Below are positions 2,418-63,115 of a stretch of DNA of 64,000 nucleotides, piece after piece. The notes under the pieces are model-generated. The model searched no databases, was not told the origin of the DNA, and saw nothing but the letters and a program-made list of their open reading frames with translations. This DNA is from Octopus vulgaris (taxonomy: Eukaryota), in NCBI GenBank assembly GCA_951406725.2, contig OX597822.1:58528001-58592000 (forward strand). The letters run 5' to 3'. How positions within the stretch are numbered: position 1 is the first letter of the stretch; every line of letters starts with the position of its first letter. The position numbers and the translations under genes were made by a program.

Positions 2418-2479
2418 CCCCTTCATCAGCTGCCCCTGGTTCGACTCAATGCGTGTTTCGAAGGTAAGGGCAGAACACG
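2418..2479 (-). ncRNA. Hammerhead ribozyme, non-circularly permuted (copy A)
   Basis: Sense CGUGU-U-CUGCCCU-UAC-CUUC-GAAACACG-(15 nt)-GGGGCAG-CUGAUGA-A-GGGG. Stem III CGUGU/ACACG, stem I CUGCCCU/GGGGCAG, weak stem II GGGG/CUUC. Predicted cut after GUU (2474/2473). Confidence 0.75.
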
Positions 2480-2736
2480 GCCAGGCCGAAGCAATCCTTC
2501 TTGCAAAAGGAATTAAATAAAATTATTTTGCAGAGGGTAAAACAAGTGACAAGAACAGGACGTAAAAGCAATACAAATGAAGTAAAAACAGTAGAAAAAA
2601 CAGTTCAAATAAAGAAATAGGACAGGGAACCAACAATAAAGGCTTTTTTTGCCTAGACGGTGGAAAATTTAGTTAGAACGCATGTGAAAAATCGGCTTGC
2701 GAAGGACAGAGAAATCGATCTATACTTGTTGAAGCA

Positions 2737-2798
2737 CGTGTTCTGCCCTTACCTTCGAAACAGGCATTGAGTCGAACCAGGGGCAGCTGATGAAGGGG
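2737..2798 (+). ncRNA. Hammerhead ribozyme, non-circularly permuted (copy B)
   Basis: Same as copy A except GAAACAGG, giving one G-G mismatch in stem III. Confidence 0.7.
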
Positions 2799-3038
2799 AA
2801 TTTTCCTTGTATTGTTTGTCCTGTACTCTGTTTTTCCGTTGTTTTAAAAAAAGTCCGTTTCCTTGTTTTTTCGTTGTTTAAAAAAGTCCGTTTCCTCGTT
2901 TGATTTTATGTTTTCGTCTCTCGTTGTGTTCTACGTTTATTTGTGGTGTCCTGTACTTATATATATATGCATGTATATATACATGTAGATGTAAGTATGT
3001 ACATATATGTATGTATATATGCATATATTTTATTTATT

Positions 3039-4735: not shown

Positions 4736-5532
4736 AAACTTACTTGGAGGAAACGAAACGACGCGAGGGCGCTCAGTCATACAATAGTGTAATAAATAAA
4801 ATATATGCATACATACATACATATATGTACGTACCTACATCTACATGTATATATACATGCATATATAAATATATATACGTGAGTACAGGACACCACAAAT
4901 AGACGTAGAACTCAACGAGAAACGAAAACGTAAAAACAAACATGGAAACGGACCTTTTTTTTAACAACGAAAAAACAGATACAAGACAAACAACACAAGG
5001 AAAATTCCCCTTCATCAGCTGTCCCTAGTACGACTCCATGCGTGTTTCGAAGGTGAGGACAGAACACGACTCGTCGAACTAGCCCTTAAATAAAATTCCT
5101 TTGCAGAGGGGTAAAAACAAGGAATGAAAAAAATGTGACAAAACAGGACGTAAAAACGATACAAATAAAATTACAAAATAAAATACAAAATAAAAATACA
5201 ATTACAAAAAATACAGTACAAGAAATAAAAACAAACAAGAAAACAAACAATGAGGGCCTTTTCTGGCCTAGACGAGGAAAGATTTTCAAGAGCGCAGGAA
5301 GAAAGCGTGTTCACTGTTAGGAGGCCGCAAGCGAAAGGAAGTGGTCGCCTGGCTGTGAGAGAGATGAGGAGGAGTGAGAGAGAGAGAAAGAGAGAGGAAA
5401 GGAAACCAGAAAGGGTGAAAAAGAGAGACAGGCAAAGAGGAAGACAAGGAAGGAAGGGAAGGTCAAGCAAAGAGTTATAGAGTTTCGCGTCATAATTATA
5501 TATAAAAACTTACTTGGAGGAAACGAAACGAC
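4736..5532 (-). mobile_element. ~770-bp ORF-less HHR-bearing unit with a 27-bp terminal direct repeat (retrozyme/Penelope pLTR-like)
   Basis: AAACTTACTTGGAGGAAACGAAACGAC at 4736-4762 and 5506-5532; contains HHR copy C; homologous to 2066-2743 and 62720-63115. Confidence 0.75.
5007..5068 (-). ncRNA. Hammerhead ribozyme, non-circularly permuted (copy C)
   Basis: Sense CGUGU-U-CUGUCCU-CAC-CUUC-GAAACACG-(15 nt)-GGGACAG-CUGAUGA-A-GGGG; compensatory C-G to U-A change in stem I versus copy A. Confidence 0.75.
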
Positions 5533-34385: not shown

Positions 34386-34421
34386 GTATCTGACGAAGTA
34401 CTGTATCCGAAACGTTACTAC
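34386..34421 (+). ncRNA. Decayed minimal type I HHR in a pLTR-like segment (~34260-34540)
   Basis: GTAT-CTGACGA-A-GTACTGTATCC-GAA-ACGT-T-ACTAC; core intact, stems damaged. Confidence 0.5.
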
Positions 34422-44078: not shown

Positions 44079-44129
<51 letters not shown>

Positions 44130-44600
44130 GGCAGCTAGCTGGCAGAATCGTTTACACGTCGGACGAAATGCTTAGCGTTATTTCGTCTGTCTTCATGTTC
44201 TGAGGTCAAATTCCGTTGAGGTCGACCTTACCTTTCGTCCTTTCGGACTCGATGAAAAAACTACCAGTCAAGTACTGCGGTCTTTGTAATCGGTTATCCC
44301 TCTCTCTCCAAACTTCAGACTTTGTGCCTTCAATAGAAAGGATCATCATCATCATCTTCATCATCATCATCATTATTATTATTATTGCGACGAGCTGGCA
44401 GAATCATTAGCACGCCGAGCGAAATGCAAGCGATATTTGGTCTCCCGTTACGTTCAGAGTTCAAATTCCGCCGAGGTCGACTTTGCCTTTCATCATTTCG
44501 GGGTCAATAAAATTGGTAGCAGTTACACACTGGAATTGATGTAATCGACTTAATCCATTCCCCCAAATTTGAGGCCTTGTGCTTCCAGTAGAAAGGATTG

Positions 44601-44641
<41 letters not shown>

Positions 44642-45400
44642 GCGAGCTGGCAGAATCGTTAAGCACGCCGGGCGAAATGCTTAGCGGTATTTCGTCTGTT
44701 GTTACGTTTTGAGTTCAAATTCCGCCGAGGTCGACTTAGCCTTTCATCCTTTCGGGGTCGATAAATTAAGTACCAGTTACGCACTGGGGTCGATGTAATC
44801 GACTTAATACCTATGTCTGTCTTTGTTTGTCCCCTCTATGTTTAGCCTCTTGTGGGTAATAAAGAAATAGGTATTTCGTCTGCCGCTACGTTCTGAGTTC
44901 AAATTCTCCGAGGTCGACTTTGCCTTTCATCCTTTCGGGGTCGATAAATTAAGTACCAGTTGCGCACTGGGGTCGATGTAATTGACTTAATACCTATGCC
45001 TGTCCTTGTTTGTCCTCTCTATGTTTAGCCTCTTGTGGGTAATAAAGAAATAGGTATTTCGTCTGCCGCTACGTTCTGAGTTCAAATTCTCCGAGGTCGA
45101 CTTTGCCTTTCATCCTTTCGGATCGATTAAATAAGTACCAGTTACGCACTGCGGTCGATATAAGCGACTTAATCCGTTTGTCTGTCCTTGTTTGTCCTCT
45201 CTGTGTTTAGCCCCTTGTGGGTACTAAAGAAATAGGTACTTCGTCTGTCGCTACGTTCTGAGTTGAAATTCTGCCGATGTCGACTTTGTCTTTTATCTTT
45301 TTGGGTCGATAAATTAAGTATCAGTAAAACACTAGGTCGATGTAATTGAGAAGCTCCGTCCTCCAAGATTTCCGACCTTGTGCATATAGCAGAAAGGATT
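44130..45400 (+). mobile_element. SINE S2 cluster including a head-to-tail array of ~183-bp units (44686-45400)
   Basis: Units restart at GGTATTTCGTC at 44686, 44870, 45053 and (GGTACTTCGTC) 45235. Confidence 0.9.
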
Positions 45401-62012: not shown

Positions 62013-62719
62013 TGTATGTATGTATGTATGTATGTATGTATGTATGTATGTATGTATGTATGTATGTATGTATGTATGTATGTATGTATACATACATAAA
62101 TGCATACATACACAGAGACATACACATATGTGTACATATATATATATATACATATATATACATATATATACACACGTATTTATATGAATATATATATATC
62201 CATCCATCCATGCACTTTCTATCTTTTCCTATTTTTTGAAGTTTATAGCAATGCGATCTAGGTTATTTTGTCAAAAATATTCATGATTTTTAGCTCACCA
62301 GATCTGGGGTCAACCAATGGACGGCTATGTACTCTCCACAGGAGAGATTGTTTCTTTGTTTAAGACTCTGGAAAATAATAGACGGTCTTCATATACATAT
62401 ATATTTGTGAGTGTGTGTATGAGCGCACAAGTATTTTTATGATATACTCATACACACAGACACATACAATGCATTCATGCGTGTATGCATGCATATATAT
62501 ATATATATATGTATATTTTCTATATGTTTTCACGTACCAACAAACACGCACAATCATAAGAGCATTTAAGCTTAAAGAAATTATTACACACAAAATTAGT
62601 GTGTAGAATTGCTTGCATACATTTAGATTATATACACGAATTCACGCGCATGAATACACACACATACATATATATACACACAATTACGTACAAGTGTGTT
62701 CATGTGTACATGCTAGCTT

Positions 62720-63115
62720 AGCAGCCCTTACTGTTTGTTTTCACTGTCCTGTTTTTGTAACCAACTTTGACCGTCCGCCAGTCTCAAATCTTATTTTGCT
62801 ATGCGGGACATATTTTGTCGCAATTGCTCGAAATGTGGAATAGATAAAACAGCCGACAACTGATGAAGGGTCATTCTTTATGTTACTTGTTTTATTTTCC
62901 ATTGTTTTCTTTCGTTGTTCGCCAAAAAGTTCGTATTCCATGTTTTCATATTTCGTATTTCATGTTGTTTACGTTTTATGACGTCTTGAACCCATATGTG
63001 CATATATATATTATTTATATTATTATAGGATTGAACGCCACGCATCCATTTCCAAGTAAGTTTATCATAATAATTCCGATGCGACTCTATCATGCATTGT
63101 TCTCTTTCCCTCGTT
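62720..63115 (+). mobile_element. Diverged member of the ~770-bp HHR-unit family
   Basis: Same motif order as the sense strand of 4736-5532: HHR, T-rich segment, GTC(C/T)TG(T/A)AC, CCAAGTAAGTTT and ..CG(A)ACTCTAT. Confidence 0.7.
62809..62871 (+). ncRNA. Hammerhead ribozyme, non-circularly permuted (copy D, diverged)
   Basis: CAUAU-U-UUGUCG-CAAUU-GCUC-GAAAUGUG-(16 nt)-CGACAA-CUGAUGA-A-GGGU. Stem III CAUAU/AUGUG, stem I UUGUCG/CGACAA, stem II GGGU/GCUC. Confidence 0.72.

Follow-up and report, generated by a model that had tools for sequence, protein, structure and literature searches.

The stretch of Octopus vulgaris DNA analysed here (the window; 64,000 nucleotides, positions 58,528,001 to 58,592,000 of the forward strand of contig OX597822.1) carries at 62809–62872, on the plus strand, the pieces of a hammerhead ribozyme in an unusual order, which raises the questions of how such an RNA would fold and whether this copy could still cleave itself. 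The reading favoured here, with a probability of about 0.7, is that the locus holds a deleted and likely inactive copy, and that its intact relatives fold as a split-core self-cleaving hammerhead.

The strands that a first-pass annotation had placed at 62809..62871 are all present when the sequence is read directly. These comprise the stem III 5' strand CAUAU (62809-13), U17 (62814, with the predicted cut at 62814/62815), the stem I 5' strand UUGUCG (62815-20), GCUC (62826-29), GAAA (62830-33), the stem III 3' strand AUGUG (62833-37), the stem I 3' strand CGACAA (62854-59), the CUGAUGA core (62860-66) and GGGU (62868-71), which that annotation took as a strand of stem II. Grouped by function, block S (62809..62820, +) contains the stem III strand, the triplet AUU (AUC in the family), the cut and the stem I strand; block G (62824..62837, +) contains the stem II 3' strand UUGCUC, GAAA and the stem III 3' strand; and 62854..62872 (+) contains the stem I 3' strand, CUGAUGA and AGGGUC, the 3' strand of a helix IV described below, which includes the GGGU. 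The hammerhead core of CUGAnGA, GAAA and NUH thus lies at the junction of stems I–III, with GUC, AUC, GUA, AUA or GUU as the NUH triplet in relatives and AUU in this copy. The block order of the four window copies (core positions 2429-, 2787+, 5018- and 62860+) and of their relatives confirms the proposed non-circular permutation, S-G-C with crossing stems, and the compensatory changes reported for stems I and III are real, 4/5 and 5/6 pairs being altered on both sides. The distances also agree with the annotation, the interval from GAAA to CUGAUGA measuring 26 nt in all four window copies and that from the cut to GAAA 14-15 nt; the former is fixed among these copies only, and ranges from 23 to 26 nt across families. 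The contrasts drawn with the other copies stand in part, since CUGCCC/GGGCAG does not describe stem I of the copy at 5018 (CUGUCC/GGACAG), and stem III of the copy at 2787 is broken (3 bp). Most members of the subfamily keep the pairings, stem III being even improved to CACAU/AUGUG: CACAU, found in 11/21 parsed family copies, is commoner than the CAUAU of this locus. The supposedly unchanged UU site, on the other hand, is a mutation of this copy at H17, where 20/21 parsed family copies have C17.

The strength of this motif lies in the combination of its parts. CUGAnGA alone occurs at chance level (29 observed vs 24.1 ± 4.5 expected); the core together with stems I and III gives 7 matches in 664 kb vs 0, 0, 0, 0 and 1 in five shuffles, one of the seven (L107) resembling chance. 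No Rfam family matched the window at its gathering score, and for five loci only microsatellite-driven miRNA-type matches were present among the 150 of 174 listed; the lack of an Rfam hammerhead match is expected because the strand order differs. A reading of these four copies in canonical C-G-S order was rejected, since the 60 nt following each core contain no CGAAA. When single copies are folded as nested structures, their stability is unremarkable (z from -1.1 to +0.7), which is uninformative for a triple knot. Minimal hammerhead-like motifs in normal C-G-S order were observed in other repeat families of the window at 34390 (+), 63455 (-) and 21123 (-), the last two with one core base changed.

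The central difficulty concerns stem II. Where copies are intact, the II' strand that precedes GAAA pairs with a strand 21-28 nt upstream of the cut, forming GAAGG/CCUUC in families A, A2 and C, GAGCAA/UUGCUC in family B, GGCUGG/UCAGCC in family D and GACACC/GGUGUC in the Naiad type. This upstream helix has 5-6 bp in 9/9 representatives, with five core-proximal Watson-Crick pairs, a count to be read with the fact that it was located by a best-partner search and that B2 and B3 were chosen by scans scoring it. Families C and D provide a fair test of it because they were first found on stems I and III alone, and the 5-6 bp upstream stem II appeared afterwards. The strand following CUGAnGA pairs instead with a strand farther upstream to form helix IV (4-7 bp in A, B and C, longer in D), hairpin V lies between helix IV and stem II, and a further helix, P6, 4-10 bp long and present in every family, would connect stems II and I at their outer ends. 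Helix IV and hairpin V fold in 10/10 copies, with gaps of 0-1 nt between IV and V and of 0-2 nt between V and II; helix IV is weak in B3 and not resolved in A4, and its covariation is low among A, B and C (1/5 pairs doubly changed). None of these three helices (IV, V and P6) figured in the first-pass model. An uninterrupted block C, in which CUGAnGA is followed directly by the stem II strand, is absent in family D and the Naiad type, and in A, B and C such a stem II is weaker than the upstream helix. Since the real stem II strand would lie upstream and helix IV after CUGAnGA, the chain appears to be opened between A9 and G10.1, which would be supplied by opposite ends of the motif.

Exchanging strands among the nine representatives gave concordant results for the five core-proximal pairs, own strands forming on average 5.0 pairs in stem I, 4.94 in stem III and 5.0 in the upstream stem II, and swapped strands 2.45, 2.42 and 2.2. 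Moreover, in an alignment of ten sequences of the A, B and C types, 94.8% of cells are paired under a model without P6, which was kept outside the computed pair count because the alignment shifts it. In that alignment, 18/28 pairs are changed on both sides, a value reached by 0/500 shuffles, although the rows are related sequences and shuffles overstate significance; slid partners pair at 40-46%.

These data bear most directly on the alternative that the repeats are ordinary type-SGC hammerheads, in which stem II would use the strand after CUGAUGA-A, the upstream helices would be inhibitory or incidental, and the copy at 62809 could cut. A downstream stem II of 4 bp is possible in A, A2, B and C, being 92.5% paired in the same alignment, and it leaves in place the bulged base that characterizes Penelope hammerheads (PMC4209133); in the deleted copy at 62809, it is the only stem II available. 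However, although this helix also passes the shuffle comparison (1/500), it does so through G-U pairs and with one double change, and its strands scarcely distinguish their own partners from swapped ones (2.56 vs 2.39, five positions scored). It has -4.1 to -5.6 kcal/mol and about half G-U pairs, compared with -8.7 to -12.2 kcal/mol for the upstream helix, and the strand after CUGAnGA forms a stronger helix IV. It also falls below 2 bp in D, D2 and B3 and has at most 2 bp in the Naiad type. The GGGU/GCUC helix of the first-pass annotation is itself about half G-U, with 1/4 pairs doubly changed, and is absent in family D. It is, thus, probably the wrong stem II as judged from pairing, and the ordinary type-SGC fold is considered unlikely.

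Under the favoured split-core reading, the damage at the locus becomes apparent. The motif belongs to a 5'-truncated copy of repeat family B, a non-coding, Penelope-like tail at 62716..63063 (+), of which blastn against long family-B copies covers 62716-63020 at 82-84%, the shared end motif of the repeat continuing to about 63063. The helix IV 5' strand at 62769..62774 (+) reads GACCGU vs GACCCU in family B, giving one mismatch in this helix, and hairpin V at 62775..62806 (+), which ends directly on G10.1 in intact copies, is partly decayed. At 62806..62808 (+), pairwise alignments reveal a deletion (19 nt vs L013 and L009, 18 nt vs L015) that took away both the upstream strand of stem II and the 5' strand of P6, leaving the P6 3' strand at 62846..62852 (+) without its partner. 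The missing strand is present in 25/27 family B copies fetched, loci that were chosen by a query that included the upstream sequence. Thus, whereas stem II with G10.1-C11.1 is built on the upstream strand in intact relatives, only a weak downstream strand is left here. The copy had been taken as a working variant; it is likely inactive, because its upstream stem II strand is deleted and AUU replaces AUC. Short internal deletions inside the ribozyme recur (window 62806-62808, the 5018 copy, L247, L364 and L385), some of them at microhomologies, and perhaps reflect template jumps during reverse transcription.

Among the four window copies, every helix is intact only in the family A2 copy at 2418..2536 (-), with its predicted cut at 2474/2473. 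Its inverted partner, an A2 copy at 2737..2799 (+) with the broken stem III, is 5'-truncated 6 nt upstream of the cut, and the family A copy at 5007..5105 (-) has lost the 3' half of hairpin V and G10.1 by internal deletion. All belong to a superfamily with thousands of copies in the 2.8 Gb genome (227 contigs), for which first-look searches returned 2793 candidates of family B, 2331 of A, 3013 of C and 1070 of D, rough and possibly overlapping counts of which 40 per family were scored. By blast, about 12 distinct copies with a core were counted in 664 kb, including the four inside the window, which scales to an order of magnitude of 10^4 core-bearing copies per genome. The repeat units are non-coding, 780-860 nt long, often tandem or inverted, and lie within (TA)n. 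Retrozyme units measure a few hundred nucleotides, so that the octopus units are longer. Family D is young (40/40 identical among the matches listed), with tandem units of ~844 nt, and family C is nearly as young, with 98-100% identity. In older D-like subfamilies (L025, L112, L026, L172 and L097), stem III and P6 are rewritten and helix IV reaches as many as 13 bp. Among sequencing runs, those of three other organisms contain 0.48-0.78 of the words of family D (L140 5845-6420), and no RNA dataset was found among the datasets listed as containing the repeat. One 874-nt contig closes on itself (843 + 31), as the abundant circular RNAs of animal retrozymes might, but tandem DNA also explains the closure. 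Elsewhere in the window, 44116-45346 contains tandem copies of a 180-255 nt SINE-like repeat, possibly akin to octopus tRNA-derived SINEs.

Self-cleavage should leave a trace in the 5' ends of young copies, and these were mapped relative to the predicted cut with queries confined to sequence 3' of the core, a mapping repeated for families C and A with queries placed further 3', about 115 nt from the cut (116 for C). Ends at 0..+42 were compared with those at -43..-1 among top-scoring matches only, after excluding internal deletions (L247, L266, L296, L327, L364, L374 and L385), two ends at the query edge and one duplicate (L314). Family C yielded 14 vs 2 ends across the cut, 3/29 lying exactly at 0, give or take one base owing to the TA flank. 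With the downstream query, whose set overlaps the former by about ten loci, the counts were 13 vs 2, and 13/20 of the ends between -85 and +115 fell in 0..+43 (22% of the span, p 4e-5). Family B gave 10 vs 2 and family D 6 vs 0, 14/30 of the family D rows extending to the end of the reference. In family A, the pile-up was not significant (5 vs 2; 5/13 with the downstream query, p 0.14). GUU is generally a slow hammerhead site, so that the GUU of family A fits its weak pile-up, a correspondence noticed after counting. The crowding of ends just 3' of the cut lends indirect support to self-cleavage, as far as genomic copies can reveal it.

The same ends could be read differently if the fold were kept as a binding or priming signal for a retroelement protein, with no cutting, and reverse transcriptase stalled in the knot. 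Penelope minimal hammerheads cut poorly in vitro (PMC4209133), three ends of family C fall between +49 and +55, where the fold has its 3' edge, and family A has spread despite its GUU site and without a clear pile-up. Nevertheless, the catalytic bases and the NUH triplet are all kept in families with fully rewritten stems, few ends fall in the equally structured 5' half, and several lie exactly at the cut, making such a signal improbable. Equally improbable is an active form assembled from two tandem units, or after splicing out an intron ending at the AG before G10.1, for although tandem arrays are common, a pyrimidine tract and AG end exactly before G10.1 in A, C and D (L035, L125 and L140), a donor-like motif closes the units of A, B and C (window 63050-63063) and the Drosophila virilis Penelope hammerhead adjoins an intron end (PMC4209133), all helices close inside about 130 nt of a single unit, the AG is missing from most B copies and the Naiad type, no good splice donor follows the core, and, as a weak point, the contigs of the four runs compared contain no spliced joint. 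Splicing between tandem units would take out helix IV and hairpin V.

Among the closest known relatives of the split-core fold is type SGC, the non-circularly permuted hammerhead HRIMA-1 and its variants, which cleaves in vitro (Eckert et al. 2023, PMC10085705). The octopus motif shares with it the S-G-C order of catalytic words, the core, a linker of ~3 nt between stem I and II' and, with P6, probably a helix that bridges stems I and II at their outer ends. However, it differs in that block C is split at A9/G10.1, with half of stem II moved to the 5' end, and in that the split is closed by helices IV and V. In the relevant sections of that paper, CUGAnGA was assumed to be inseparable from stem II, with no insertion of more than 1-2 nt known, and the examples were drawn from searches of metatranscriptomes, metagenomes and RefSeq; its supplement contains none of the terms octopus, Mollusca, nematode and Metazoa. 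Penelope minimal hammerheads are of type I (C-G-S), have almost no stem III, need dimers and tolerate one bulged base between A9 and G10.1 (Cervera and de la Pena 2014, PMC4209133). The location in terminal repeats and the tolerance of an insertion at A9/G10.1 (one base there) are common to both. In the octopus motif, by contrast, 5-7 bp make up stem III, the strands follow a non-circular order, and two helices that would keep the chain ends together take the place of the single base. Animal non-LTR retrozymes, proposed as Penelope-like derivatives, are non-coding tandem units with one hammerhead each (PMC7229834; bioRxiv 10.64898/2026.07.22.740005), an organization that the octopus repeats reproduce; retrozyme hammerheads, as characterized in these sources, are of type I, to which the non-circular octopus order does not correspond. 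In the literature searched, mostly outside subscription papers, non-circular hammerheads occurred only in PMC10085705 and citing papers, never in an animal or a retroelement, and no layout had its opening at A9/G10.1; the pertinent passages of PMC3088659, PMC11300833, PMC10162972 and PMC13725137 describe no non-circular hammerhead.

The octopus repeats also resemble Naiad elements, which, in the parts of Craig et al. 2021 (PMC8557442) that deal with their tails, have no canonical hammerhead, some tails being marked 'HHR_core' or 'HHR_half_core'. Naiad-like traits found here include (TA)n insertion, tandem and inverted partial copies, and placement of the motif close to the 3' end. A 21-nt piece of the published octopus Naiad tail occurs 225 times without mismatch in the genome, a control 0 times, and the genome's own Naiad-type copies fit the split layout by computation. 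By eye, this layout was recognized in the tails of Naiad_Amil, Naiad_Aacu and Naiad_Anas from corals (the last two from Acropora), Naiad_Obim and Naiad_Ovul, and in four further unnamed consensus entries of the portion of the PMC8557442 supplement considered, with a degenerate form in Naiad_Esco. Stem I of the octopus Naiad tails is identical to that of family A2. The entries Naiad-1, -2 and -3_Nbra, Naiad_Hcon and three unnamed ones in that portion are instead, also by eye, of type CSG with block C intact, a type of which two sequences were known to Eckert et al. 2023 (PMC10085705). A nematode and at least one other Naiad tail contain, on the same kind of inspection, clean type-CSG hammerheads with a long interaction helix. 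The present results differ from the account in PMC8557442, as far as its tail annotations go, in that half cores are given there without a structure and families A-D are non-coding.

No open reading frame with an N-terminal GIY-YIG and a C-terminal reverse transcriptase (RT) is joined to families A-D in the loci fetched, and 13 extended Naiad-type copies showed no RT or EN motif. Nearby GIY-YIG pieces were rejected as a parent because they are separate insertions, and the endonuclease upstream of the D copy in L173 because other repeats lie between. A very young Penelope-type family (L061-L090, and L008 2628-3209 on the minus strand) has RT followed by a C-terminal GIY-YIG, with more than 90 identical endonuclease copies and frames of up to 869 aa. 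It was discarded as the parent, as no hammerhead core was seen in those of its 3' ends that were inspected, and is a candidate mover of the non-coding families in trans. From their sequence organization, families A-D appear to function like non-autonomous Penelope tails.

What the sequence itself establishes is the strand order, the complementarity and covariation of helices I, II, III, IV and V across families, a P6 in each family, the deletion at 62806..62808 and the crowding of young 5' ends just 3' of the predicted cut. The intact RNA would run IV - hairpin V - II - P6 - [III NUH I] - [II' GAAA III'] - P6' - [I' CUGAnGA] - IV', so that A9 would have no link to G10.1, and the position that a single bulged base occupies in other Penelope hammerheads would be taken by helices IV and V, keeping the core halves together. 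P6 would play the part of the type-SGC interaction helix by tying stems I and II to each other at their outer ends. In a read-through RNA of a tandem unit, IV, V, P6 and III would form a nested frame that stems II and I would cross, completing the core. Such an RNA could be cut at NUH once per ~0.8 kb tandem unit, generating a template with a fixed 5' end, which a Penelope-type reverse transcriptase/endonuclease acting in trans might copy into (TA)n. This copying would often lose a few 5' bases, and full and tandem copies would arise from uncut or longer RNAs. The same fold may be the ribozyme of many Naiad elements, in which case it would have been missed because searches assumed the C-G-S order.

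It is considered fairly likely that the split layout falls outside the six block permutations and is active in vivo in spreading octopus repeats, that it or its CSG relative is the standard Naiad ribozyme from corals to nematodes and cephalopods, and that non-circular hammerheads are present in tens of thousands of animal copies. If this is true, hammerhead wirings would extend past an assumption of the paper that defined the permutations, the A9-G10.1 link being dispensable, and non-circular hammerheads would move from rare environmental RNAs to high-copy animal retroelements. Moreover, the view that Naiads spread without a hammerhead would be overturned. Young families of identical copies whose ends crowd at the cut would make it possible to test whether the reverse-transcription template is set by Penelope ribozymes.
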